From the UHGV virus genome UHGV-0128156: 47,462 nucleotides of DNA. One strand, written 5' to 3'. Below the pieces are notes generated by a model. It made no database searches. It was not told the DNA's origin and saw only the letters and a program-made list of their open reading frames with translations. A program made the translations under genes and the position numbers. Source of the DNA: a virus. Positions within the stretch are counted from its first letter, which is position 1; every line of letters begins with the position of its first letter. Shown piece after piece: positions 2,150 to 32,639 of the stretch.

Positions 2150-2437
2150 TTATTTACAGTCCTTATTAGTAAATCCGGTCGCCAGCCAGTGCCCTACGGG
2201 ACGAACTGTCTGGCCAGGTGCAACACGCACCTGCATGCGACCAAAGCGGTCATACCTGACCGCATTGATTTTTAGCTGGTACTGCCCGTTTACCGGATAG
2301 GTGTTGATTTTGTATGTCACAGTGCATTCAGTTGGCTTGTAACGCTGGTCTGCACAACCACTAACCAGGATGCTAATACCGCCCACCAACAAAACGCAGG
2401 ACACCGTTTTGATCAAAAACTTTAAGCCCTGATTCAT
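2150..2437 (-). CDS. Small lipoprotein encoded immediately downstream of, and overlapping, the 3' end of J (possible Cor/Lom-position superinfection-exclusion or outer-membrane protein)
   Basis: MNQGLKFLIKTVSCVLLVGGISILVSGC gives a signal peptide with lipobox LVSGC. Its start lies 64 nt inside the J coding region in another frame. Confidence 0.5.
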   Translation of the reverse strand: MNQGLKFLIKTVSCVLLVGGISILVSGCADQRYKPTECTVTYKINTYPVNGQYQLKINAVRYDRFGRMQVRVAPGQTVRPVGHWLATGFTNKDCK

Positions 2438-5400
2438 CCAATTGAATCCTCCCTTGACCAGGTACATTGCTATTCATTTCGAAAGCCCCATTTTTTGGCA
2501 AACGCCAGCCGGTGGAGCCAGGTTGATAGTTTGTTGACTGCAGGCTGTCAGAAATCTGACCAAAGTTAATCGTCAGGTTACGGGCCATCGCCTGCTGAAA
2601 ATAAGCGCCGTTCCCGTCGATACCGAAGACCATATTTTTTTGATCGCCGTTAGGCACATAAACGCCAAACGTATCAGCCTGGACCAGGAACTGTGACTGG
2701 CCGCTGCCGTCAATCCCCAGCTGGATACCCGCCACGTAGTTATTCCCACCGGAAGACGTATTGACCTTAACGCCCCACTGCGCTCCCAATTTCCCGTTTA
2801 AATCCGCCACGGTGGATGCCGTCTGCTGAACGGTCGCAGACATATCCCCGACCTGCGAGGTCAGCGTGGTGATTTGCTCAGTGGTTGATTTTTCCAGGTC
2901 GGCAACGGTTTTGTTCGTCGTGGTGATTGCCGCGCTGTTGTCGCCAATCATGCTGCGCATCTGGTTAAAGCCGGTCGCCATTGCCAGGCCGTTAGATGCG
3001 ATGGTTTCGTCCTGCTTCGTGATGCGCGATTCTGCATCATCCACACGCGAGCCGAGGCTGGTGATTTGCCCTGCCTGCGCGGTGATATCCTTCCCTTGCT
3101 GGGTCACGGTCGCAGTCAGCTGGGTAACGGCGTTCGCGGCGCCAGTGGCGGTATCCTGCGCCTCCTGTGCGTCGGTCACATCGACAATGCTGATATCGTC
3201 CAGATGCAGCGAATAACCGGCTCCACCGTTCGCCCCCCTGGTGGAGATCCACATCTGCGCAATGCTCCGGTCGGCACCAACGGTCGCTACCCCCGTCAGG
3301 AGAACCCATTTACCGCGCGAGATGTTTGTCTCGGAGATACGGACGGCTTCCGGCCACTGGTTTGCGCCGCCATTCTCTCCGCGAGCAAAGAGGCCGACAG
3401 ACACGCTCCAGCCGTTCGGTGTCGACATATCGCTGGCCATGTAAGCCCAGAGAGAAAACCGATACTTACCGCCACCACGAACAGCAAGCCAGTTCCCGAT
3501 CATCTTGTCGCTGTTGCCGCTCTCGCCGTTGTTACGCGTGATTTTGAGCGACTTCTGGCCATTGCGGTAAACATCGGTCGAGACGCGCGCCAGCGAGCTG
3601 CTGCCCAGCTGCTGGTTTGCGGTGTACGACTCAAATGAGCCATCACACCAGGGGTTTAATCCCTGGCTCTGCAGCGCACCGATTGAGGCGTTGACCGACG
3701 TGATCGCGCTGGCATTAGAGGCAATATCTTTTCCCTGCTGTGTCACGGTCGACTGCAGGTTAGATACAGCGCCAGCCGTGGCATCGAGATCGACCCGGTC
3801 AGTAATATCGATAACGTACACATCGTCGATATAAATTTCGCCTGCATTCAAAAACGCGTTGATGCTGACCGACATGGTGCCGTCTTTAGTGGCGGTCCAT
3901 GTGTTGCTGTACTCCTGCCATACGCTGCCAGTCAGCATTGTGGCCGGGTCGAAGCGCGCCTCAACGATTACAGAGCTGTCGAGGTACGCAAATCGAACCT
4001 TGTTATTCGGCTGCGTGTTCGGCTGCATAGTCGACCCGGCCTTAGCCCGCAACCACGCGCCAAACTTGTACGTCCTGCCCTTAACAACAGTAATAACAGT
4101 GTCACTCGACAAAAGAGTCGCGGATGTAGCGGCGACATATTTCACGATTTTTTTGCCGCTATGGGGACTGGATGCCGCCATAATCGTCGTTGGTGCTGGC
4201 GCGGTCCAGTTGGTGAAGTCGCGCTCGAATCCTCCGTTTAAAATCAGGTTGCCCGTGATTTTGTTATCCACGTCAGCCATTGCTGCATTCAGGCTTGCAG
4301 AAACGGCGGTCGTGGCGCTGGCATTCGCAGCAATATCCTTGCCCTGCTGCGTGACCGTCTGCTGCAGCTGCGTGACCGCAGACGTATTTGCATCGATGGC
4401 CACCGCATCGGTGATGTCGTAAATGGCGATGTAGTCAATTTGAATGACCGATGCGTTCGGGTAGCAGTAGAGCGCAAAAACAGAGCCATCCACTGTCGCC
4501 GACGATGGCGCGCTAAACTCAGCGGCATACGTCGCCCAGGTATCCGTGGCGGAGAACTGCCGGTTTTCATAAGTCCCGGCCACATTCCCCAGGTAGTTAA
4601 ACCGGCGAACCATGAAATTCATCGCGCCGGATACTCCCTTCGCCTTAACGATGACCTGGTAGCGACGTGGGGTATTGTGTGGCAGCGGCGCTTTCTGGTT
4701 AGCAAAGAGGCCGGTATACAACGTGCTGTCGAGTTGCGTCATCTGGACGCCGGGTTTACCGTCGCCAAAGTCGCCAAACTCCACCTTGTTACGCGTATTC
4801 CCCTGGACACCCCACAGCGCCGATCCACTCATAAAATTAAAATCGTTTGCCAGGTTCTCGCCGCGATTGAGCATCGCATTCACCGCGCCGGTGACGGAGG
4901 TGATCGCCTGGCTGTTCGTTTCAATTTTCCCTTCCGCTGCCGTGGTTCGTTGCGTCAGGGACTGAATTGCGCTGCTGTTCGCGCTCTGCCCGGATTCAAG
5001 GTTCGACACTCGACCTGTAATGGCTGTAATAGCCTGGCCCTGGCTGGTGATAGTGTTGCCCTGCTGCGTCACTTTCGCATCCAGCTGGGTGACAGCACCG
5101 GCGGCAGCGTCGGCGGCAGTCTGTGCGCCCTGCGCGGCGGTGATCTCCCGGCAGTGGAAATCAGTTGCATACCAGACGGAGCCAAACGGCGCGTTCTGGT
5201 TCACCTGCAGGAATGGGCGCATATATCCGCGCGGGAAGTTAGCCGGGACCGTCCAGCGGTATTTTTTCTCCGTCCAGGTCTGAGTGGGCGCAACGCTACC
5301 CGGTAAAGCAGCATAAGCCACGGCACCCGTATTCGGTCCCGTAGCCGAGCCGATGTACATGTTAAATGCGGCGTTGGAACCTGCCTTTGCCGCTACCCAG

Positions 5401-8400
5401 ACCGAAATCTCGAATACCTGTCCCGCTTTTACCGGCCACGGTGGCGTATTGAGCTGGTGATCGCGTGAGGCCAGTCGCGCTACATAGCGACGCGGAGCGC
5501 CTGCCGGGATGTCAGCATCATACGGAATACCATCATCGTCGTTGCTGTCTACCGTATCCCGACGGGTAAAACCCATCGATGGATATGCGGGGTCAAATGT
5601 CGGGTTCAGGATGTAGTCGCCACCCGCTGCCGTCTGCGAATTCAGAGCAACATTAATCCCGGTGATCGCCGTTCCCTGCGATTCAATTTTACCCTCAGCA
5701 CTGGTGACGCGCGTATCAAGCTTGCTCACGGCATCGGCGGTGGCCGCTTTGGCCAGCCCTTCCTCAACCGTCGCTACGCGTCCTTTCAGGCTGGTTATGG
5801 CCTGGTTCGCCGCCGTAATATCCTTGCCCTGCTTGGTAACGGTGGCGCTGAGGTCCTGTACTGTCGAGCTATCGGCCTTCTGGTCGATTCGTTTCCCCAG
5901 GTCTGTGTTAACGGTATCGATTCTGCCGGTCAGTTGCGTTAGCGATTTACCCTGACTGGTAATCGTATCGCCCTGCTGGGAGACGGTTGTCTGCAGGTTG
6001 GTCAACGCTGTCGCGTTCGCATTAATATTTTCCTGGTCGGTAATATCAATGACGAACATGTCATCGATATAGAGCTCCCCGGAGGCAAGGCGAGCCATAA
6101 CGCTCATCTGCATAACGCCCGATTTATTCGCCTTCCACTTAGCAAATACTTCTGTCCAGACGGAACCAGTCTGCAGTTTTGTTGGGTCAATACGGGCTTC
6201 CTGAATCTGCGAATTGTCATTAAACGCAAACCGGAATTTGTTGCTTTGTTCGGAGCCAGTAACGATAGCCGTCCCGTCTTTCGCTCGTGCGAATCCTCCA
6301 AACCTATAAGTCCGACCAGCAACGACCGTCACGGTCGTGGTATTGCGTACCTCATCCAGCTGGTCGTTATGAGCTTTGAAGTAAAGAATTTTTTTACCTG
6401 AGCTGGGTTGTTGGGCCGTATCCACACGAACATCGGTCGTTGAACCTGTAACCCAATTATCAAAGCCACGCTCAAACCCACCATTCGGGATTAGGTTTCC
6501 GGCCAGCTTGTTGTCTGCGTCATGCTTCATCGCAGAAAGATCTGCTGACAGGCTCGTCGTCGCAGCAACGTTCGCAGCAATATCCTTACCCTGCTGCGTG
6601 ACGGTGGACTTCAGGCTATCCAGCGCGGCGGTGGTGGCTTTCTTCGCCACCTCGGCATTGGTGGTATCAATACACCCACTCAGGCTGGTGATCGCGCTGG
6701 CGTTGGTGGCAATGTCGTCACCGTTCTTCGTGACCTGCGACTGCAGGTCCTGCACCGCTGATGCATCGGCTTTACCAGCGATACCGTTTGAGGCGGTCAG
6801 CATGAAGCCCTGCAGGTAAACACGAGCGGTCGACGGCGTCCATCCTCCGCAGGCCATGCGCAGGTAACACCACCTCCCTTTGAAGTCATTCGGGATCGTG
6901 AACGTCAGCGTGCGGGTCTGGTAGCCGGTGGTGATGCCTGCAAACCAGTTGTTGTCCTGAGTAAGCCATGCGGTCGGGTTCCCCCAATTCTCAATCAGGC
7001 CCATCGTAAAATTCTGGGTCCCGATACTGATCGTCGCGTCGTCCGTCTTGAATCCGAAGGTGAGCGTCAGTACCTGACCGGCTTCGACCGGGATTTTTGT
7101 TCCGTTGGCGATTCGCATCGCCGGCTCGGTCGTGGTGAGACCTTTCATCACCGCGTCATAGACCGGAGCACCCGCGCCGGTGCCGGACAGCTGCCAGTTA
7201 TCCGCTTTATTAATCAGGTCGCCATTCAGCAGGAGGTTGCCGGTCGTAATCTGTGACTTGAGCGCCGTCGTCTGCTGCGCCGTGGTGGCCAGCGTATTCT
7301 CGGCAGTCGTGACGCGGGTCGTCAGTTGCTGGACAGCATCCGAGCTGGCGCTGTCTGCCGGTGCCTGGCTCCAGTCGCTCACAATATTGCCGGATTCAAA
7401 CATCGGAGAGCTGATCCACGCTTCGCGCGCTGCAGCTGCGCCGTCGAGTCTGGCCACAACGAGATACGCCGTCCCGGACAAGCCAGGTTTGCGTTTGTAT
7501 TTAACCCAATAGCGGCTCCAGGACGTGGAGAGCGTCACGGTCACATCGCCGTTATACCCGGCTGGACGCTCCACAATAACGCCCTGGCTGGTTTCAGCGC
7601 GGATAGTGGCATCCGGCGTATTCAGGAAACAACGAACCGGCGTCTTGTCCGTCTTCGCTTTCGCATAGAACGACAGAACATACTCGGTACCGTCAACCGG
7701 CGCGGCCAGCGTGTAGTCGAGGACGGCAAAATCAGTCGCTCCGGCGGCACGCGTCAGGATGCGAACCGCGTTACCCCGGTAACGTTCGGTTGTAGATGGC
7801 GATTTGCCGGTCAGTTCCCCGGAGTTGGGTATCAGGTTTACGCCGCCGATTCGGATGTTATCGACCTTCGATTCCACCCCGGCAATCTGGCTGGCGTTGG
7901 CCTGAACTTTGCCGTCGATAGTCTGGACGTCACCCTCGATTTTCTGGATGGCCAGCGTATGGCCAGCAATGACGCCGTTCGCTGAAACAAGGTCCGCTGC
8001 AACCTGATCCGTTTTCGAGGCAGTCGACTGCAGGTCGCTCGCCAGCGTATCCATGCGCTGGGTCGCCGCTGCAGTGGATTTATCATAATCGACGCGCAAC
8101 GTATCAACGCGGGAGCCGATGGCCTTCTCCGCCGTCACGCGGATTTTCCGCTCTTCGAAAAGCAGGCCAGAAACCAGTTTATTCGGGTCTGTCCCTTCCT
8201 CGTTGCCGCGCAGCTGCACCGCCAGTTGGTTACGCTCCATCGCCTCAGCTGAGTCGGCAGCAGTCATCGCCGTTTTCAGGTCCTGAATCTGCGCCTGCGA
8301 TGCGCCAGGAGTCGGGCGCCCAACGGCCAGCCAGTCAACGGCATAATAGTTATCGGCGTCAGCCGCTCCACCCTGTGAGAAGTCGAGACGCAGGCGGCGG

Positions 8401-11400
8401 ATGGTGCCGGAGGCCTGCCACGGGATATCCGGGATCGCGATAGTGCTGATGCCGGTGGCCGGGTCAAAATCCGGTGCTGGCAGCACCAGGCGGCGTCCAT
8501 CGGTCCAGCCGGTTTCATCAGCGCCAATCCAGTACAGCCGACCGCCCCAGGCCGGGTTGCCGACTTTCTTGATGCGCAGGCGGAGGTACTTATAGGCGCT
8601 GCCGTCAATCAGCGTGCCAGCGCCCGACGGGCTGCGCATGGTCGAAATGGAATCCGCAGGAAGGACCCACCCGTCGTCGTTCGTCGGGAGCGGTTTCGTG
8701 CCGCCGTCGTCAGAACTCCACCCCTCGTTGTCCTTGTCGAAATACCAGATTTTGAGACTGTCGAACTGCTCCCCGGTACCGGCTGAAATCGACGCCATCT
8801 GCTGCGCCAGGCTGTCAAAGCCATCCTGCATGGTGACGTTCGTCGTCTCAATCGCCGCTTCAACTTCGCGTTTGGCACTCAGCAGGTTATCGGCGGCCTG
8901 CTTCGCCAGGGCGGCATCGTCCGTTTCGGCTTTCGCCACCGCCGCCGCAGTATCGCTGGCCGCTTTCTGCGCCGTGGCGGCATCACCTGCAGCGCGGTCT
9001 TTCACTTCCTGCGCCAGCTTGTTGGTCGTGTCGTTAGTTTTGGCGATGTTGGTGGCCAGGTCCTTGCCCTGCTGCGTGACAATGGCCCCCTGTGCGGCGA
9101 CATCCTTCGCCGCCTGGTCAGCGGTTCCCTGGGCGGCGTCCGCAGCCTGTTGCGCGGCGTCGGCAGCAGCGCTGTTGTCCTGGATGCCTTTGTTCAGTTC
9201 CTCGTATGTATCCGAGCCTTTAAGCGCGTCGTCGAGCTGCTGGTAATAATCAGAAACGTTATCGCTGGACATTCCATGCACCCAGCTGGTCCACGGCGAG
9301 GCATTGCCCAGGCGGTCAACCAGGCGCGCGCGGTACCAGAACTGCGTGGCAATCTGCAGGCCCATCTGTTGATACTGTTTGCCCGGATACGCTAAATCGG
9401 TCAGCGGCATCGCACCGTTTCCACTCTGGTCCGGGCTGTACTGCAGTTCAGTTCGCTGGCTATCCTCTGCGCCTGCAGGGAATTCCCAGCGAATTTCGAT
9501 ACCTGCGGTCAGTGAAACGGTCGTCAGCGCCAGCGGCGGCAGCGGCTCGCCGACTTTCCCGGTCAGGGTCTTCTCTTCCGAGTACGCCCAGCCACTGGAA
9601 ATTTCCGCCGCGTTGATCGCACGGACTCGCACCAGATAGCGACCGGCATAAATGCCGCTGACCTCAAATGACGTGGTCGAGCTGCGCGGCACGTTAATCC
9701 AGTTGCCGTCATTGCGGCGCCACTGAGCCTCATAGGCGATAGCGTTTTGTACCGCGTCCCAATTGACCTGCAGGGTTTCGACGCTGATCCCCTGATTCAC
9801 CACGGAGAAGGACGTCAGGAGGATGCCATCTGGCGGAGCCTGGTTGCCAGGCGGGATAACACTAATCGGGCGCTGGTCGATGATTGCGCCGGTATCGATA
9901 CGAGCAAATTTATCCGGGTCGTGAGCCACGCCGGTAATGGTAAGCGTGCCGTTATTGTTGTCCTTTACACCGATAACGCGATACTGCTGCGGCACCAGGT
10001 CGGTATATTCGACGATCCAGACGCACTCCGCCTCTGGTGTCTCACTGTATCCCGTCGTGACCGTTACCTGCCGGCGGCCATTCACCGACAGGATGGCCCT
10101 AGCCTGCGAGATACCCGACGGCAGATTCAGATGCAGGCGGTCGCCTTCTTTTGCATCGATATCACGGTCGAGCGTGATGACGCGTCCATTCACCGCGCTG
10201 ATACGACCACCATTAACTCGCCCGGCCAGCCGTTCATCGCCCAGGCCAATGATGTAACCAGGCTGTGGGATCCTGCCGTCCAGACCAACATCAATTTCGA
10301 CCATACGGTCCTTGTTGTTGGTCAGAATGGCCCATAACCCTTTACGATGGGCTTCACTCTGCCGCGTACATCCAATGGCCGTGACTTCCACCTGATTAAA
10401 GCTGTAACGGGAAACCAGTTCCGGGATAAATGCGGGCTCCATCGCATCGGCATAGGCGTTATCCGGGTCAGACCATGAAACTAGCGCATTGGTGTACCGC
10501 GCCTTACTGGTGCTGCTGGAATAGCGCGGGCTACCGATAATATTTGCGCGCGTATAGTTGAAATCGACATCACGCGGCATATCGGCCTGCACGATAATCT
10601 GCTCACCACTCCAGCAGGTCATACCCCGGAAAATAGCAGCGAAATCGCGTAGTACGGTGTAGGCGTCGTTGCGTTCCTGGACATAAACGTTACAGGTATG
10701 GCGAGGCTCCATACCATCACCGCCCCTGCCATCGGGTATCAGCTGATCGCAATACTGCGCAATCGGGTAAAGCGCCCATTTGGAGATATTCGCGCTGGTC
10801 AGACGATCGCCAAGACCGAAACGATCAGAGACAATAATGTCGTAATAAATCCATGCCGGGTTATCAGTCCATGCCCATTTGAAGCCCCCTGTCCATGTGC
10901 CGGTATATTCGCGCGTTTCCGGGTTGTAGTTATCCGGGACACGGATAACACGCCCGCGCGGCTCGCAGGAGATTTGCGGGATAGAACCATTGAACTGGCT
11001 GGAGTCGAATTCGATGTACAGCAGAGCGGTATGTGGGTAACGCAGTTTCGCGTCAATAACCTCGGTGTAGCTCTGTAGCGTCATGACATCGCCGATTTTG
11101 ACGCTGTTCGCGTCCGGCGATACCTTGCGAAGACGCAGCGTCCAGGTGCTGCCTGCCTGCGGTAAATCTATACGGTGGCTACGTTCATACCCGGAAGTCG
11201 TTTTGCCGGAGGCTGCGGTTTCCAGTACGGTCTGCCAGGCTTCGCCATCCGTCTGTAAATCGATGGCGTATTTAACGGTATTCCCCACCACATCGCCGTC
11301 GTCTTCCTGTTTCATCAGGGATGGCCATTTCAGGCGGACGCGAACGGCAGAAAGCTGGGTATTGGTGAATGTGTGGGTCCAGGCGGTCTCGCTGGAAACT

Positions 11401-11699
11401 TCCGTCCCTACGCTAATTTCATTTTCAGTGCCGGGAATACCCTGAATATAATTTTGTGCCTGCGTACCCGGCCTGAATTCCCACGCTACGCCGCTAAAGC
11501 TTTGCGAACCGTCGGCATTCTCCAGAGGGGTGCCATCGAGATAAATATCTTTCCCGGTTAAACCACCCGCAAATTCACCCTCACCTAATGCGATAAGAAT
11601 TTTGGCTTTTGCTACAGACTGTAAATCGTCCGGCTGTTCCGTGGGCGTACGCTGTTTAGAGCTGCCACCTTTACGCCCTTTAATGATGTTATTTGCCAT
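2373..11699 (-). CDS. J: Giant host-specificity / central tail fibre protein (lambda J-like N-terminal region with a very long repeat-rich C-terminal extension), 3108 aa
   Basis: The N-terminal ~1000 aa follow the lambda gpJ pattern and the gene sits directly downstream of gpI. The C-terminal two thirds contain at least 8 diverged modules built from the motif V(T/S)QQGKDI...ITSL plus CBM-like NL(I/L)PNGGFE(R)(G/D)F(D/T)NW segments. Confidence 0.85.
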   Translation of the reverse strand: MANNIIKGRKGGSSKQRTPTEQPDDLQSVAKAKILIALGEGEFAGGLTGKDIYLDGTPLENADGSQSFSGVAWEFRPGTQAQNYIQGIPGTENEISVGTEVSSETAWTHTFTNTQLSAVRVRLKWPSLMKQEDDGDVVGNTVKYAIDLQTDGEAWQTVLETAASGKTTSGYERSHRIDLPQAGSTWTLRLRKVSPDANSVKIGDVMTLQSYTEVIDAKLRYPHTALLYIEFDSSQFNGSIPQISCEPRGRVIRVPDNYNPETREYTGTWTGGFKWAWTDNPAWIYYDIIVSDRFGLGDRLTSANISKWALYPIAQYCDQLIPDGRGGDGMEPRHTCNVYVQERNDAYTVLRDFAAIFRGMTCWSGEQIIVQADMPRDVDFNYTRANIIGSPRYSSSTSKARYTNALVSWSDPDNAYADAMEPAFIPELVSRYSFNQVEVTAIGCTRQSEAHRKGLWAILTNNKDRMVEIDVGLDGRIPQPGYIIGLGDERLAGRVNGGRISAVNGRVITLDRDIDAKEGDRLHLNLPSGISQARAILSVNGRRQVTVTTGYSETPEAECVWIVEYTDLVPQQYRVIGVKDNNNGTLTITGVAHDPDKFARIDTGAIIDQRPISVIPPGNQAPPDGILLTSFSVVNQGISVETLQVNWDAVQNAIAYEAQWRRNDGNWINVPRSSTTSFEVSGIYAGRYLVRVRAINAAEISSGWAYSEEKTLTGKVGEPLPPLALTTVSLTAGIEIRWEFPAGAEDSQRTELQYSPDQSGNGAMPLTDLAYPGKQYQQMGLQIATQFWYRARLVDRLGNASPWTSWVHGMSSDNVSDYYQQLDDALKGSDTYEELNKGIQDNSAAADAAQQAADAAQGTADQAAKDVAAQGAIVTQQGKDLATNIAKTNDTTNKLAQEVKDRAAGDAATAQKAASDTAAAVAKAETDDAALAKQAADNLLSAKREVEAAIETTNVTMQDGFDSLAQQMASISAGTGEQFDSLKIWYFDKDNEGWSSDDGGTKPLPTNDDGWVLPADSISTMRSPSGAGTLIDGSAYKYLRLRIKKVGNPAWGGRLYWIGADETGWTDGRRLVLPAPDFDPATGISTIAIPDIPWQASGTIRRLRLDFSQGGAADADNYYAVDWLAVGRPTPGASQAQIQDLKTAMTAADSAEAMERNQLAVQLRGNEEGTDPNKLVSGLLFEERKIRVTAEKAIGSRVDTLRVDYDKSTAAATQRMDTLASDLQSTASKTDQVAADLVSANGVIAGHTLAIQKIEGDVQTIDGKVQANASQIAGVESKVDNIRIGGVNLIPNSGELTGKSPSTTERYRGNAVRILTRAAGATDFAVLDYTLAAPVDGTEYVLSFYAKAKTDKTPVRCFLNTPDATIRAETSQGVIVERPAGYNGDVTVTLSTSWSRYWVKYKRKPGLSGTAYLVVARLDGAAAAREAWISSPMFESGNIVSDWSQAPADSASSDAVQQLTTRVTTAENTLATTAQQTTALKSQITTGNLLLNGDLINKADNWQLSGTGAGAPVYDAVMKGLTTTEPAMRIANGTKIPVEAGQVLTLTFGFKTDDATISIGTQNFTMGLIENWGNPTAWLTQDNNWFAGITTGYQTRTLTFTIPNDFKGRWCYLRMACGGWTPSTARVYLQGFMLTASNGIAGKADASAVQDLQSQVTKNGDDIATNASAITSLSGCIDTTNAEVAKKATTAALDSLKSTVTQQGKDIAANVAATTSLSADLSAMKHDADNKLAGNLIPNGGFERGFDNWVTGSTTDVRVDTAQQPSSGKKILYFKAHNDQLDEVRNTTTVTVVAGRTYRFGGFARAKDGTAIVTGSEQSNKFRFAFNDNSQIQEARIDPTKLQTGSVWTEVFAKWKANKSGVMQMSVMARLASGELYIDDMFVIDITDQENINANATALTNLQTTVSQQGDTITSQGKSLTQLTGRIDTVNTDLGKRIDQKADSSTVQDLSATVTKQGKDITAANQAITSLKGRVATVEEGLAKAATADAVSKLDTRVTSAEGKIESQGTAITGINVALNSQTAAGGDYILNPTFDPAYPSMGFTRRDTVDSNDDDGIPYDADIPAGAPRRYVARLASRDHQLNTPPWPVKAGQVFEISVWVAAKAGSNAAFNMYIGSATGPNTGAVAYAALPGSVAPTQTWTEKKYRWTVPANFPRGYMRPFLQVNQNAPFGSVWYATDFHCREITAAQGAQTAADAAAGAVTQLDAKVTQQGNTITSQGQAITAITGRVSNLESGQSANSSAIQSLTQRTTAAEGKIETNSQAITSVTGAVNAMLNRGENLANDFNFMSGSALWGVQGNTRNKVEFGDFGDGKPGVQMTQLDSTLYTGLFANQKAPLPHNTPRRYQVIVKAKGVSGAMNFMVRRFNYLGNVAGTYENRQFSATDTWATYAAEFSAPSSATVDGSVFALYCYPNASVIQIDYIAIYDITDAVAIDANTSAVTQLQQTVTQQGKDIAANASATTAVSASLNAAMADVDNKITGNLILNGGFERDFTNWTAPAPTTIMAASSPHSGKKIVKYVAATSATLLSSDTVITVVKGRTYKFGAWLRAKAGSTMQPNTQPNNKVRFAYLDSSVIVEARFDPATMLTGSVWQEYSNTWTATKDGTMSVSINAFLNAGEIYIDDVYVIDITDRVDLDATAGAVSNLQSTVTQQGKDIASNASAITSVNASIGALQSQGLNPWCDGSFESYTANQQLGSSSLARVSTDVYRNGQKSLKITRNNGESGNSDKMIGNWLAVRGGGKYRFSLWAYMASDMSTPNGWSVSVGLFARGENGGANQWPEAVRISETNISRGKWVLLTGVATVGADRSIAQMWISTRGANGGAGYSLHLDDISIVDVTDAQEAQDTATGAANAVTQLTATVTQQGKDITAQAGQITSLGSRVDDAESRITKQDETIASNGLAMATGFNQMRSMIGDNSAAITTTNKTVADLEKSTTEQITTLTSQVGDMSATVQQTASTVADLNGKLGAQWGVKVNTSSGGNNYVAGIQLGIDGSGQSQFLVQADTFGVYVPNGDQKNMVFGIDGNGAYFQQAMARNLTINFGQISDSLQSTNYQPGSTGWRLPKNGAFEMNSNVPGQGRIQLDESGLKVFDQNGVLRFVGGRY
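3084..9095. repeat. Dispersed intragenic nucleotide repeat family inside J (about 25-45 bp core aatatccttgccctgctgcgtgac...ctgcag)
   Basis: Copies near 3084, 3724, 4332, 5048, 5817, 5950, 6579, 6711 and 9058. They encode the repeated peptide TQQGKDI on the minus strand. The artefactual plus-strand ORFs carrying ISLPCCVTV are their mirror image. Confidence 0.8.
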
Positions 11700-27840: not shown

Positions 27841-28269
27841 TTATTCCTCTAACTCAGGAGCGGTTCCGCCATCAGCCTGCAGCACACTTTCAGGGATACG
27901 GCTTTCCAACGGCTGCATCTCAAAGATTTTGAGTCCATCGAAACCAAGGAAGGTTGTGTTGGTATTGATATTGCCGGTGATGAAGTCGCTAACATCCATC
28001 AATAAAGCGTTAACGATGCTTTCTGTGTCCTGCCGCCAGTAGTTCTCGATGGCCGTCAGTAACGGATCAGAACCATTGCTAACTGACTGCTCGCCAACCT
28101 GGTAGGTTTTCTTGTTGTCTTTCCCGGTGACACATACCAGCTTGCTGGTCTGCATGGATACCTGATCCGAGTTGTTCACCTTAACGGTGATCGTAGCGAC
28201 CTTATTGCCTTCATCGTTCGTGCTGGAGGCATAGAACATGGCTAGGGTTAGCTCATTACGGTTATACAT
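27841..28269 (-). CDS. Hypothetical protein
   Basis: 142-aa ORF between the HNH cluster and terS. Shares a short TITVKV motif with the two KIEYV paralogues. Confidence 0.5.
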   Translation of the reverse strand: MYNRNELTLAMFYASSTNDEGNKVATITVKVNNSDQVSMQTSKLVCVTGKDNKKTYQVGEQSVSNGSDPLLTAIENYWRQDTESIVNALLMDVSDFITGNINTNTTFLGFDGLKIFEMQPLESRIPESVLQADGGTAPELEE

Positions 28270-28583
28270 TATTGGCTCCGTTGACGGTTACGGCGGCGGC
28301 GGCCACGCGGTTGCGGTTGTTGGGCTGGTGGAAGGAGCTCTCCTTCCTTCGGCGGTTCTGCACTAACTGGAACCGTTGGTTCGGCTTGCACCTGCTGGGG
28401 CGGTGGCGCAGGCATCTCTTCTACCGGACCTCCGCCCATTTCAACCTTCAGCAAGGGCTTTTCCTCGAGCGTATGGCTGAAGTAAAGCGCTGTTACTCCG
28501 GCACCGAGGAATGACGTTCCGTTTTTCTCCAGGGCAACCAACTGCCCATCAACGTATTCAATTTTAAGATTCGTGGCGGTCAT
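28269..28583 (-). CDS. Small protein, KIEYV-family paralogue 1 (Pro/Gln-rich middle, Arg-rich C-terminal tail)
   Basis: Start MTATNLKIEYVDGQLVA is ATGA-coupled to the HNH stop. Paralogous N-terminus to the gene at 28942..29226. Confidence 0.55.
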   Translation of the reverse strand: MTATNLKIEYVDGQLVALEKNGTSFLGAGVTALYFSHTLEEKPLLKVEMGGGPVEEMPAPPPQQVQAEPTVPVSAEPPKEGELLPPAQQPQPRGRRRRNRQRSQ

Positions 28584-28942
28584 CGCGTTCTCTCTGTTGC
28601 TGTTTTCTTTCTGTGACATGGCCAGCACAACGACTCCAGGTTGGAGTCGTCATCAGTACCGCCGTGGGCTTTAGGGATGATGTGGTCGACGCTGGTAGCT
28701 TTTGTGGCTATGCCGTGGCGTCGGCAGTTCTGACAAAGATATTTGTCGTGCTGGAGAACTCTGGCGCGGCGAATTTCCCACGGTCGGCCATAACCCCTTT
28801 CATGCCGACTTTTCCCAGCCTGATAATTGCGCCAACCATCGCCAGCATGTTGCAGTCGGTGGGCGTCACAATATCCGCTGGCATCATTGGTTATTGCCGC
28901 GCACCCCCGGTGGCGGCATGGGCGTTTAGAGCGGGCTGGCAT
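28580..28942 (-). CDS. HNH endonuclease (terminase-associated)
   Basis: CxxC...H..H...N...CxxCH motifs. Typical position upstream of terS in HK97-like phages. Confidence 0.85.
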   Translation of the reverse strand: MPARSKRPCRHRGCAAITNDASGYCDAHRLQHAGDGWRNYQAGKSRHERGYGRPWEIRRARVLQHDKYLCQNCRRHGIATKATSVDHIIPKAHGGTDDDSNLESLCWPCHRKKTATERTR

Positions 28943-29226
28943 TAGCGGTTATTCTTAATCGCAGACCAGGCTTTACTACCCGGTCTAAACGCAATATTTA
29001 AAGCGGTATCAATCCGCTTAGATATGTCGTTACCGACATCATCTATCGTCTTCAGGGCTGCGCTAGCATCCATATCAACTTTTATCGTAATGGTTGAAGT
29101 CTGTTTTTCCTTACAATCGGCGCCTGGCTTGATGCTCAATGCGGGGATTGTTGTACCGAATATTGAGCCAGAAACTAAATGGCCAGCAATGACGCCATTA
29201 ACGTATTCAATCTTGATATTTTGCAT
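28942..29226 (-). CDS. Small protein, KIEYV-family paralogue 2
   Basis: MQNIKIEYVNGVIAG... AAGG RBS. Preceded by an intrinsic terminator. Confidence 0.55.
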   Translation of the reverse strand: MQNIKIEYVNGVIAGHLVSGSIFGTTIPALSIKPGADCKEKQTSTITIKVDMDASAALKTIDDVGNDISKRIDTALNIAFRPGSKAWSAIKNNR

Positions 29227-29241
29227 CATGGACCTTTATGA

Positions 29242-29270
29242 ATAAAAAAGCCTCGCATCTGCGAGGCTAC
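29242..29270 (-). terminator. Intrinsic terminator between the AT-rich island / lysis region and the packaging genes
   Basis: Minus strand reads AGCCTCGCAGATGCGAGGCT followed by TTTTTTATTC. Confidence 0.7.
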
Positions 29271-29445
29271 TGGTTAAACATCATGGTGTTGCTGGGCGGC
29301 ATTGAGAAAACTCTATTCAAAGGCTATTTGGCAAAAGAAACATCCGGATTTAGAACTTGATGTATCCAGTGCATTGAAATATCCGAAAAATGTGATAACG
29401 TCAGTTTGGACCAAAACGATAACTGTTTTTATTCATATTACATCT

Positions 29446-29480
29446 CGCCCTGTTCCCCCATAAAACAGGGCGTTTTTTTA
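29446..29480 (+). terminator. Orphan plus-strand intrinsic terminator in the AT-rich intergenic island
   Basis: CGCCCTGTTcccccataaAACAGGGCG followed by TTTTTTTATTC. There is no plus-strand gene upstream. Confidence 0.6.
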
Positions 29481-29588
29481 TTCGCCCACCAGAAAAATCA
29501 ACACAAAACGTATGGGCTAGATACATTAATACCCATAAAAAAGGCCGCATCAGCGACCGTAGGAAATAAGGAAAATATATTTCCACAA

Positions 29589-29768
29589 TCAGGCATACAT
29601 CCAACCTAACACACTAATAATTATTGCTAGTACGATTAAAGTTATGGCCGTCTTGCGCATGAATACACCATAAAACGCCAATGCCATTCCAATACAAACG
29701 ACTATCAATACAGGCCACATGTTAAGCAAAAGTAATAAGTAAGCTTCCAAATCGCTGTGAATCGTCAC
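29589..29768 (-). CDS. Putative 59-aa two-TM small membrane protein (GTG start with GGAG RBS)
   Basis: VTIHSDLEAYLLLLLNMWPVLIVVCIGMALAFYGVFMRKTAITLIVLAIIISVLGWMYA. Lies in the low-GC island downstream of the spanin genes. Below the ORF-track cutoff. Confidence 0.3.
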   Translation of the reverse strand: MTIHSDLEAYLLLLLNMWPVLIVVCIGMALAFYGVFMRKTAITLIVLAIIISVLGWMYA

Positions 29769-30107
29769 AATTACTCCGAATTCATTAAGTCAGCCATTCC
29801 ATAGTTCAAAACTTCGTCACACGATATCATGTGATTGCCCCTTACAAGACCAGATCCTATCACAAAATTTTAACAAGAGAGTGCTGTTTGTGAGCAGTAT
29901 CGGGAGATTTACCCACTACCCTTAGATGAGATAGACATTCTCATCGATTTGTTATTTGCCAGGATATCGCACCTGAACTGCTCTGAAAATATTTTCGAGT
30001 TATTTACCGCTTACGCTTGTTGTTTCTGAGCTGGCTTCTAGGCTAAAAGAGCCATTACATAAAAGACCTTGCGTTTACTTACCCGTGGACCTCAAGGATG
30101 AGGCCAT

Positions 30108-30341
30108 TTATTTCACTCGCTGAGAGGAGTTAATGCTCTGGCAGTTAGCTAGCACCAATTTATTGTGCGCCAGAATGTCGCGCTTGGTCTGCTTATCCAG
30201 CACGTCGATATCGTGGTCGGTCAGGTAGATAATTCGTACCCAGCTGCAGGCCGTATCAACCACCACCGGGGCGGGTAAAGTTTTCGCGCAGCTCCCGATC
30301 AACATCGTCATCAGGCATATGGCTAACAGTCTGCTGAACAT
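30108..30341 (-). CDS. o-spanin (Rz1-like outer-membrane lipoprotein), overlapping the 3' part of the i-spanin gene in another frame
   Basis: MFSRLLAICLMTMLIGSC gives a lipobox. AGAGAGG RBS inside the i-spanin gene. Extends beyond the i-spanin stop. Confidence 0.6.
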   Translation of the reverse strand: MFSRLLAICLMTMLIGSCAKTLPAPVVVDTACSWVRIIYLTDHDIDVLDKQTKRDILAHNKLVLANCQSINSSQRVK

Positions 30342-30519
30342 TGCTGGCCTCTCTGGTGGCTTCCTCTTTCCGTTCAGCCGCGGCGACGCTAGCAGCGGCT
30401 TTCTCTTCAGTACGCTTTTGTGCTGCTTTGGCTTCTGCCTTACTGGTCCCGCGGCCGAACGCACCAGCGATAGCACCCAGGATGAGGACCACCAGCCCAG
30501 CAATAATTTCAAAGCTCAT
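30256..30519 (-). CDS. i-spanin (Rz-like)
   Basis: N-terminal TM helix MSFEIIAGLVVLILGAIAGAF followed by a charged helical periplasmic region. ATGA-coupled to the upstream gene. Confidence 0.55.
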   Translation of the reverse strand: MSFEIIAGLVVLILGAIAGAFGRGTSKAEAKAAQKRTEEKAAASVAAAERKEEATREASNVQQTVSHMPDDDVDRELRENFTRPGGG

Positions 30520-30863
30520 TGTTGCGGCTCCTTCTGTTCGTCGGCCTTATCTTTCAATGCTGGCTGGCGTACGTATTGTGAGAGCACCGCCAGCACTACC
30601 AGGGCGGGACTAATCATCGCAACGATGTTTGGCGGCAAGATGTTTTTGATGTCCGGTGGCAGCATCGCCCAGGCATGAAGTGCTGCATGCGGGAATGACT
30701 GCGCCCATACACCAACCAGTGCACCAGCTGTCCCCAGACGAACAGACCAAGTTCTAAGTAACAGGCGAGCATGTCCCACAAACTCAAGACGGGTATACTT
30801 TCTTAACAGCAACAACGTTAAAACAGCCACCAGTGCAAGCAGGAAGAAAATAATAAGCTTCAT
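30516..30863 (-). CDS. Lysis-cassette membrane protein (about 3 predicted TM helices)
   Basis: MKLIIFFLLALVAVLTLLLL plus two further hydrophobic segments. ATGA-coupled on both sides, between the endolysin and i-spanin genes. Confidence 0.55.
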   Translation of the reverse strand: MKLIIFFLLALVAVLTLLLLRKYTRLEFVGHARLLLRTWSVRLGTAGALVGVWAQSFPHAALHAWAMLPPDIKNILPPNIVAMISPALVVLAVLSQYVRQPALKDKADEQKEPQQ

Positions 30864-32267: not shown

Positions 32268-32336
32268 AGGGATGTGACTTCGATTTTGTATTGGGCGTGA
32301 TACACGGGTATCGGTATCACAACTACATTATAGACA

Positions 32337-32366
32337 ATAAAAAAGCCCTGTATCTCTACAGGGCCC
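32337..32366 (-). terminator. Late-leader terminator 2
   Basis: Minus strand reads GGGCCCTGTAGAGATACAGGGC followed by TTTTTTATTGTC. Confidence 0.65.
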
Positions 32367-32639
32367 TGAAATCAGGACAGAAAGAATCGAACACCTAAGG
32401 TGTGTGGTGCCGGGTGCTTCCCGGAGAATCGGCCAGCGAACCGATCCGTGTGCTTACGATAAAAGATAGGAACCGCTGTACACTCCACCGCGTTGGGGAT
32501 TCACCACGCAGGAAAAGTAACAAAAATCTTCACCCACCACACTCAAGATTTTGTCTAAATCTGGAAAATACAACTCGACGATATGACAGGGGTACTGATG
32601 CTCAGCATCTCGCGAATACCCCTGTCGTATCGCCGGAAA

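Follow-up and report, generated by a model that had tools for sequence, protein, structure and literature searches.

Small RNAs (sRNAs) carried by prophages are a route by which temperate phages may reprogramme their hosts, and to our knowledge they are known but thinly sampled, with almost all examples coming from Escherichia coli and Salmonella. Here we describe a predicted sRNA gene and the 59-aa membrane-protein gene that faces it, which share a low-GC island between the lysis and packaging genes of the virus genome UHGV-0128156 (47,462 nt; "the window" refers to this whole stretch of DNA). The closest described analogues in anatomy and placement appear to be AgvB and AsxR, the "anti-sRNAs" of enterohaemorrhagic E. 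coli (EHEC). Tree et al. 2014 (PMC4104026) described convergent Hfq-bound sRNAs of 51–60 nt at moron sites of EHEC lambdoid prophages, and AgvB and AsxR combine a conserved 3' part with a variable 5' end (PMC4104026).

As far as can be read from sequence alone, the RNA of the window shares with AgvB and AsxR its position at a moron site of a lambdoid prophage, convergent with the coding sequence (CDS) of a moron and antisense to the late transcript, as well as its short length, its Rho-independent terminator and the combination of a conserved 3' part with a variable 5' part. It differs in lying after the lysis genes and not directly downstream of PR', in its predicted length (~75 nt vs 51–60 nt), and in that no partner sRNA was recognised on the other strand. 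By the covariance model of AgvB (RF02702) it is not a member of that family: a full-length alignment scored 17.8 bits at 29417–29478 against a gathering score of 56, and this match was found for the type A sequences only and not reproduced for type B (see below), so that membership was rejected.

The second comparison is with morons in the sense of Juhala et al. 2000, such as bor of lambda and gp15 of HK97 (reviewed in PMC3594210). The locus resembles them in forming an independent promoter–gene–terminator unit of atypical composition, placed between conserved modules and patchily present among close relatives, and a small membrane protein is typical moron cargo. The differences are that the cassette carries a second, non-coding unit and that its 59-aa protein has no relative in Pfam (best match DUF3149, E 0.1), NCBIfam, PADLOC or PDB.

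The window is a lambdoid prophage with its genes on the minus strand according to open reading frame (ORF) and profile annotation, and its sequence relationships point to an HK97-type prophage of Klebsiella aerogenes type. In 200-nt windows the GC content of the island (29200–29999) is 0.37–0.40, vs 0.49–0.60 on either side (28200–28999 and 30100–30599), in agreement with an earlier annotation made from the letters of the window (the sequence-only reading), which had pointed to a low-GC segment. With moderate confidence, we interpret this island as a horizontally acquired moron cassette of two independent, convergent units, namely a membrane-protein gene and a new prophage sRNA gene. The RNA would be previously undescribed, as it scores below the threshold of every Rfam family.

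Anatomy of the plus-strand unit

The plus-strand unit begins with a promoter-like site (29374–29401) consisting of a -35 element TTGAAA (29374–29379), a 16-nt spacer and an extended -10 element TGTGATAACGT (29391–29401), in which the hexamer TAACGT occupies 29396–29401 and a TG stands at the extended -10 position. Both hexamers had been named in the sequence-only reading and are present, while its location (about 29360–29390) and 17-nt spacer had to be corrected. The motif TGTGATAAnGT occurs a single time in the window, at this site, with 0.04 occurrences expected, and it is the same cassette-promoter motif that precedes the 59-aa genes in other clades.

Transcription from this site would produce a non-coding RNA (ncRNA) of ~73–80 nt (29408–29487, plus strand), which agrees with the small RNA proposed earlier, except that a length of ~85 nt had been given. 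Its predicted 5' part (29408–29445, 38 nt) is AU-rich and unstructured; it has the invariant blocks UUUAUUCAU and AUUNCAUCNCGC and no conserved structure. The 3' part is an intrinsic terminator, T2 (29446–29479, plus strand), formed by CGCCCTGTT-cccccataa-AACAGGGCG followed by TTTTTTT, with a 9-bp stem containing six G-C pairs and a C-rich loop of 9 nt. A terminator had been placed at 29446–29480 before, and T2 is present in both the minimum free energy and the centroid folds. It was missed by our consensus scanner because its 9-nt loop exceeds the scanner limit of 8. The reverse strand of T2 has no T-run, and termination is therefore one-directional. The predicted 80-nt RNA as a whole folds with z = -3.0. 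A 9-bp stem with a U7 tail (U6–U9 in relatives), preceded by a single-stranded region of 38 nt, corresponds to the anatomy of Hfq-type base-pairing sRNAs, and the RNA looks like a member of this class that may depend on Hfq.

Other structures were considered and set aside. The alternative hairpin GGGCG-T7ATT-CGCCC suggested by the sequence-only reading is present at 29468–29487, but it is probably incidental because it is not kept in L005 or L019, two of the related loci. A structured RNA of ~250 nt on either strand was rejected, since z values of -3.2 (plus) and -2.8 (minus) in the window compare with -1.3 in L009 and no common structure was found. A 5' stem-loop in the predicted RNA lacks conservation, being disrupted in L019 and L004, and it overlaps the predicted start.

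Judged by the absence of a conserved frame on either strand, the plus-strand unit is non-coding. None of the plus-strand ORFs (40, 53 and 67 aa) matches PHROG or Pfam, and in homologues they are broken by 1-nt indels, which bears out the earlier remark that T2 has no plus-strand gene to terminate. The frame-breaking changes include 1-nt indels at ~29304 and ~29426, many indels between the two sequence types and a T-tract that varies from T6 to T9. Small proteins on either strand of 29270–29480 were rejected, as none matches PHROG or Pfam and every frame is broken by these indels and the T6–T9 tract. Public annotations do contain genes of 58–64 aa in this interval; these cross the terminators and differ in frame.

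Conservation and covariation

The loci with this unit fall into two sequence types: type A comprises the window, L005–L008 and the divergent L019, and type B comprises L001–L004 and L009–L012. The whole island is present in L005–L008, with 88% identity. When type A is compared with type B, at saturated synonymous sites (synonymous divergence, dS, ~1), only the core from the -35 element to the T-run aligns (68% identity, z = 10.8), and neither the 80 nt upstream of the core nor the spacer toward the stop codon of the 59-aa gene can be aligned (z < 0). Within type A, the RNA body at 29408–29445 is identical to that of L019 at 38 of 38 positions, with 94% identity over the core vs 77% over the spacer and CDS. 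From these alignments, the unit from promoter to terminator is the most conserved stretch of the module and is under selection. The register of the promoter is also kept, as TTGAAA-16-TGTGATAACGT in type A and as TCGAC(T/C)-16-TGTGATACTTT in type B. Along the RNA, the 5' half is variable and the 3' half invariant, and the T-tract of T2 ranges from T6 to T9 across relatives.

The consensus structure obtained with RNAalifold is the terminator alone, with all 8 pairs kept in 10 variants and one pair occurring as U-A, U.G and C-G. The sequence-only reading had proposed covariation in related prophages as a check, and T2 passes it to this extent. At the gathering thresholds of Rfam the only match in the window was STnc100, elsewhere, and no family fits the plus-strand RNA; at permissive E-values the matches were driven by the terminator. 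Another prophage sRNA, svsR, located at the 3' end of cI, was considered and is unrelated.

The 59-aa membrane-protein gene

The gene that faces the RNA (29589–29768, minus strand) starts with GTG and has a Shine-Dalgarno (SD) sequence GGAG at 29774–29777, five nt upstream. The protein has two hydrophobic segments with MRK between them, consistent with two transmembrane (TM) segments, and matches phrog_36556 over its full length (E 8.4e-22; residues 3–59 on profile positions 5–61 of 62). Relatives are encoded on 131 IMG/VR stretches, and identities range from 46 to 100% (76–98% in K. aerogenes, ~75% in Raoultella and ~46% in K. pneumoniae phages), with MWPVL and KTAI invariant in the alignment. 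The ratio of nonsynonymous to synonymous divergence (dN/dS) is 0.11–0.20, with dS ~1 between the main clades. On these sequence comparisons, the ORF is a genuine conserved gene under strong purifying selection. The sequence-only reading had described it as a hidden minus-strand ORF with a GGAG ribosome-binding site, and had named a lack of conservation among the findings that would speak against its proposal. The ORF, its strand and its ribosome-binding site stand, and it is conserved by profile match, dN/dS and number of relatives; it is not quite hidden, as public K. aerogenes genomes already list its product among their hypothetical proteins. By analogy with other morons, the protein could act in the lysogen's inner membrane, e.g., in superinfection exclusion.

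The gene is preceded by an extended -10 element, TGTGATAGGAT (29854–29864, minus strand), which appears as TGTGATAA(T/G/A)GT in other clades and is kept in 16 leader variants; most clades share this motif, TGTGATAA(n)GT, and a leader of ~85 nt. Another promoter proposed by the scanner (29894–29867) was dismissed, as its -10 element is not kept in L005. The mRNA leader contains a hairpin (29817–29834, minus strand; UCACAUG-AUAU-CGUGUGA) close to the predicted mRNA 5' end. Among the 16 leader variants, two of its 7 pairs are compensatory, with both sides changed in the K. pneumoniae clade, and several G.U wobble variants occur. The leader also keeps the blocks AAGGGGCA and CUAUGGAA, and its identity between types A and B is 75% (z = 25). 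In addition, a hairpin plus TGTGATAATG is found in front of 59-aa genes, and many loci of the K. pneumoniae type have a second copy just downstream, which makes it a direct repeat on either side of the cassette; the loci with this motif include L014, L015, L037, L048, L059–L061 and L082–L092. It may be a reusable cassette-boundary or promoter motif.

On the minus strand, two intrinsic terminators had gone unmentioned in the sequence-only reading. T3 (29533–29558, hairpin 29558–29543), which consists of GGTCGC-tgat-GCGGCC and TTTTTTATGG, lies 30 nt past the stop codon of the 59-aa gene, and its hairpin, AAGGTCGC-tgat-GCGGCCTT, is found 3' of 59-aa homologues in many unrelated contexts, Raoultella included. 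T1 (29239–29268, hairpin 29268–29249) consists of AGCCTCGC-agat-GCGAGGCT and TTTTTATTCA, is kept in L005–L008 and ends 15 nt before the next phage gene, a 95-aa ORF. In the lysogen, T1 probably shields the packaging genes against transcription coming from the cassette. By inspection only, no convincing or conserved phage-sense promoter was seen between T3 and T1.

Linkage and distribution

The RNA was never found without the 59-aa ORF. Searches with DNA patterns of the RNA only returned 20 IMG/VR and 10 metagenome contigs, and all 30 have the convergent 59-aa gene at 119–148 nt from the hairpin, in three packaging backgrounds (HNH/HK97-like, Nu1/gpA and Terminase_2/6N). The linkage is one-way: 62 of the 82 loci found via the 59-aa protein have no RNA unit by nhmmer, and a covariance model of the unit detected no divergent copy in these RNA-less loci, with nothing below E = 0.5. 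The loci of Raoultella and K. pneumoniae carry instead a terminator, another cassette or a convergent gene for a 41-aa lipoprotein. The last was observed in the K. pneumoniae phage loci L014 (3468–3593, minus strand) and L015 (3459–3584, minus strand) as a lipoprotein-like gene (MKRIMLAVFVICGALSLSGC...) that runs toward the 59-aa gene and ends in a terminator of its own. A scan of genome contigs yielded only two Raoultella loci.

The 59-aa gene is always located between lysis and packaging genes, in ~19 different downstream contexts. The island has no match in the phage, plasmid and E. coli collections, save for the final ~110 bp, i.e., the 3' flank of the spanin gene; its nearest relatives are K. 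aerogenes genomes and IMG/VR contigs.

A proposed moron cassette with a candidate sRNA, and its alternatives

In the moron-cassette reading, the phage-sense unit would be transcribed from its extended -10 promoter into an mRNA with a ~85-nt leader, a 5' hairpin and the gene for a 59-aa inner-membrane protein, ending at T3. The unit on the opposite strand would use a TGTGATAA-type promoter and yield a ~75-nt ncRNA with a single-stranded AU-rich 5' part, a Rho-independent terminator and U7. Both units are expected to be expressed in the lysogen, where T1 would stop cassette transcription ahead of the packaging genes; T3 and T1 would be read through by the Q-modified late transcription complex, as assumed from lambdoid biology. 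The RNA is unavoidably a perfect antisense to the late transcript, and we hypothesize that it acts in trans on RNAs of the host or of competitor phages via its 5' and central single-stranded region. Several properties support the moron part of this proposal. The unit of the 59-aa gene appears to have its own promoter, suggested by the extended -10 element in 16 leader variants, and its own terminator, T3 in many contexts; the composition is atypical (low GC) and the presence patchy, as shown by the absence from the phage and E. coli collections and the ~19 contexts. For the RNA part, the regulatory sRNA that the sequence-only reading had offered as one option gains comparative support from the non-coding status, the conservation peak, the covarying hairpin and the TGTGATAAnGT motif; the linkage to the 59-aa gene and the precedent of the EHEC sRNAs also count in its favour.

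Several observations weigh against this reading. The promoter-like site matches the consensus at 8/12 positions in type A and 7/12 in type B, both under the scanner threshold, and the predicted 5' end of the RNA depends on this sub-threshold promoter. No target was found in our search, in which the complementarity to the 59-aa mRNA was at the level of chance and the rest of the window gave no sites. Conserved structure is limited to the terminator, with a single compensatory pair. The RNA family is phylogenetically narrow, with two sequence types in closely related hosts, and few independent evolutionary events are sampled because there are only these two types and many of the contigs are near-identical. 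Finally, L019 has a plus-strand 75-aa gene upstream, so T2 may primarily be the terminator of that gene.

This last point leads to the main rival, in which T2 and the sequence upstream of it are the 3' untranslated region and terminator of a lost plus-strand moron gene, kept to block antisense transcription into the 59-aa and lysis genes. The 75-aa ORF of L019 (8096–8323, plus strand) lies ~60 nt upstream of the start of homology with no terminator before T2, the K. pneumoniae phages have the convergent 41-aa lipoprotein gene with its own terminator in the equivalent place, and the promoter match is sub-threshold. We nevertheless consider an orphan terminator or insulator unlikely, as it leaves unexplained why the 38 nt before the hairpin are 100% identical between the window and L019 when the flanks are at 77%, why, at dS ~1, the TGTGATA motif and the UUUAUUCAU block have persisted next to flanks that cannot be aligned, and why a -10 motif of the cassette-promoter type, unique in the window, stands there; moreover, neither the window nor most loci have an upstream plus-strand gene. 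Less probable still is a purely cis-acting antisense regulator, in which the RNA would pair with read-through late mRNA and, by cleavage or interference, tune the expression or timing of the packaging genes, with no host target. Any late transcript must be perfectly complementary to the RNA, since all flanking phage genes are on the minus strand, and AsxR has the same antisense relation to the late transcript of stx2 (PMC4104026). The unit, however, travels with the 59-aa cassette into three packaging modules and is absent from most relatives, which argues against a core role in late-gene control, and a variable 5' half next to an invariant 3' half suggests targets in trans.

The sequence-only reading had also raised a type I toxin-antitoxin pair, with the 59-aa peptide as membrane toxin and the plus-strand RNA as antisense antitoxin. 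A small two-TM ORF (59 aa, with ~60 aa taken as the upper size of such peptides) does face a small RNA gene, a layout like that of the 3'-overlapping type I systems of Gram-positive prophages, and every RNA-carrying contig also has the ORF. The likeness to the convergent pairs txpA/RatA, bsrG/SR4 and fst/RNAII extends to the location in a prophage and stops there, as the locus has no transcript overlap, complementarity at chance and an ORF that is usually found without the RNA. T2 and T3 are separate terminators, and because the predicted 3' ends are ~55 nt apart the RNA and the 59-aa mRNA have no overlap in cis. With full-length transcripts, RNAduplex gave uninformative long duplexes; for the single-stranded part of the RNA against the leader and start region of the 59-aa gene, the duplex energy was -14.0 in type A vs a shuffle mean of -14.2, and in type B it was worse than the mean. 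A toxin would also have to persist in the 62 of 82 loci with a 59-aa homologue and no RNA, Raoultella and K. pneumoniae phages included, in which the covariance model found no divergent copy. Folding of the leader does not clearly sequester the SD sequence (z = -1.1), and the strong purifying selection and conserved motifs fit a functional membrane protein better than a generic pore-forming peptide. Considering the separate terminators, the chance complementarity and the loci without RNA, the type I explanation is not supported, either in cis or in trans, and we regard it as very improbable. A functional two-part module, in which the RNA and the 59-aa protein are more than neighbours and the linkage reflects function, seems doubtful to us, about on a par with the cis-acting antisense regulator. 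If true, the RNA could be an sRNA or sponge that works with the membrane protein toward superinfection exclusion by rewiring envelope or transport mRNAs of the host, or alternatively the pair could be a so far undescribed type of toxin/RNA system in which the transcripts do not overlap.

Overall, the moron cassette does not introduce a new principle. It would add a comparatively well-supported sRNA candidate in K. aerogenes prophages, with defined boundaries, a seed-like variable 5' end and a linked membrane-protein gene. The reuse of one promoter motif, TGTGATAA(n)GT, by the junction cassettes may also help to locate additional morons and sRNAs in these phages.

Genomic setting and further observations

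On the lysis side of the island, the minus strand encodes a holin, a GH108 endolysin, a DUF7940 holin-like protein and the i- and o-spanins, down to 30108. The following stretch, 30001–30107 (minus strand), is the 3' flank of the resident o-spanin gene; two E. coli chromosomes, the K. pneumoniae phage ST13-OXA48phi12.4 and L001–L012 share it at 93–98% identity, and from this distribution it is phage backbone outside the cassette. The ~110-nt stretch after the o-spanin gene (window 30001–30149) is thus a conserved junction, and the DNA past it is different in each of these genomes. What remains of an Rz-type spanin gene, a piece of its 3' end (29920–29949, minus strand; 30 nt that match the final codons of Rz in L019 at 90%), marks, on the basis of this match, the right edge of the imported cassette. 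Homology to L005–L008 stops near 29952, and both in those loci and in L019 the cassette directly follows an Rz-type spanin gene. The remnant looks like a scar of the recombination that imported the cassette.

The same junction between lysis and packaging genes holds other accessory genes in relatives: a protein of the Acb2/Tad1-hairpin type (an anti-defence sponge family), a TonB_C protein, DUF2560 and a 94-aa gene on the opposite strand. These genes are located in L001–L003 (1999–2283, 2623–2997), L009–L012 and L005–L008 (1833–2464), and L005–L008 also have HicAB before the lysis genes.

On the packaging side, the island is followed by the 95-aa ORF, an HNH endonuclease, two PHROG families of unknown function, and the small and large terminase subunits. 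The 95-aa ORF (28942–29229, minus strand) and a 119-aa ORF (28269–28628, minus strand) flank the HNH gene and have a common N-terminal N-x-KIEYV-x-G (pairwise E 5e-4). L019 has a single 109-aa homologue at this position and no HNH gene. This suggests that the HNH gene was inserted into or beside a duplicated gene start.

A perfect 12-nt inverted repeat, TATGAATAAAAA (29237–29248) and TTTTTATTCATA (29426–29437), encloses the stretch between T1 and the RNA's invariant block. Its two arms are similar to the tails of terminators, and the repeat may be due to chance; its arms as ends of an element resembling a miniature inverted-repeat transposable element (MITE) were rejected, as L009 has a weaker 22-nt version with other spacing and L019 has none.

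The STnc100 match (RF02076) lies at 32333–32538 on the minus strand (59.5 bits vs a gathering score of 47), directly upstream of the holin gene, and is presumably the late-promoter-proximal (PR'-type) leader of the prophage. In the tail region, a single ORF of 3108 aa extends over positions 2373–11699 of the minus strand.

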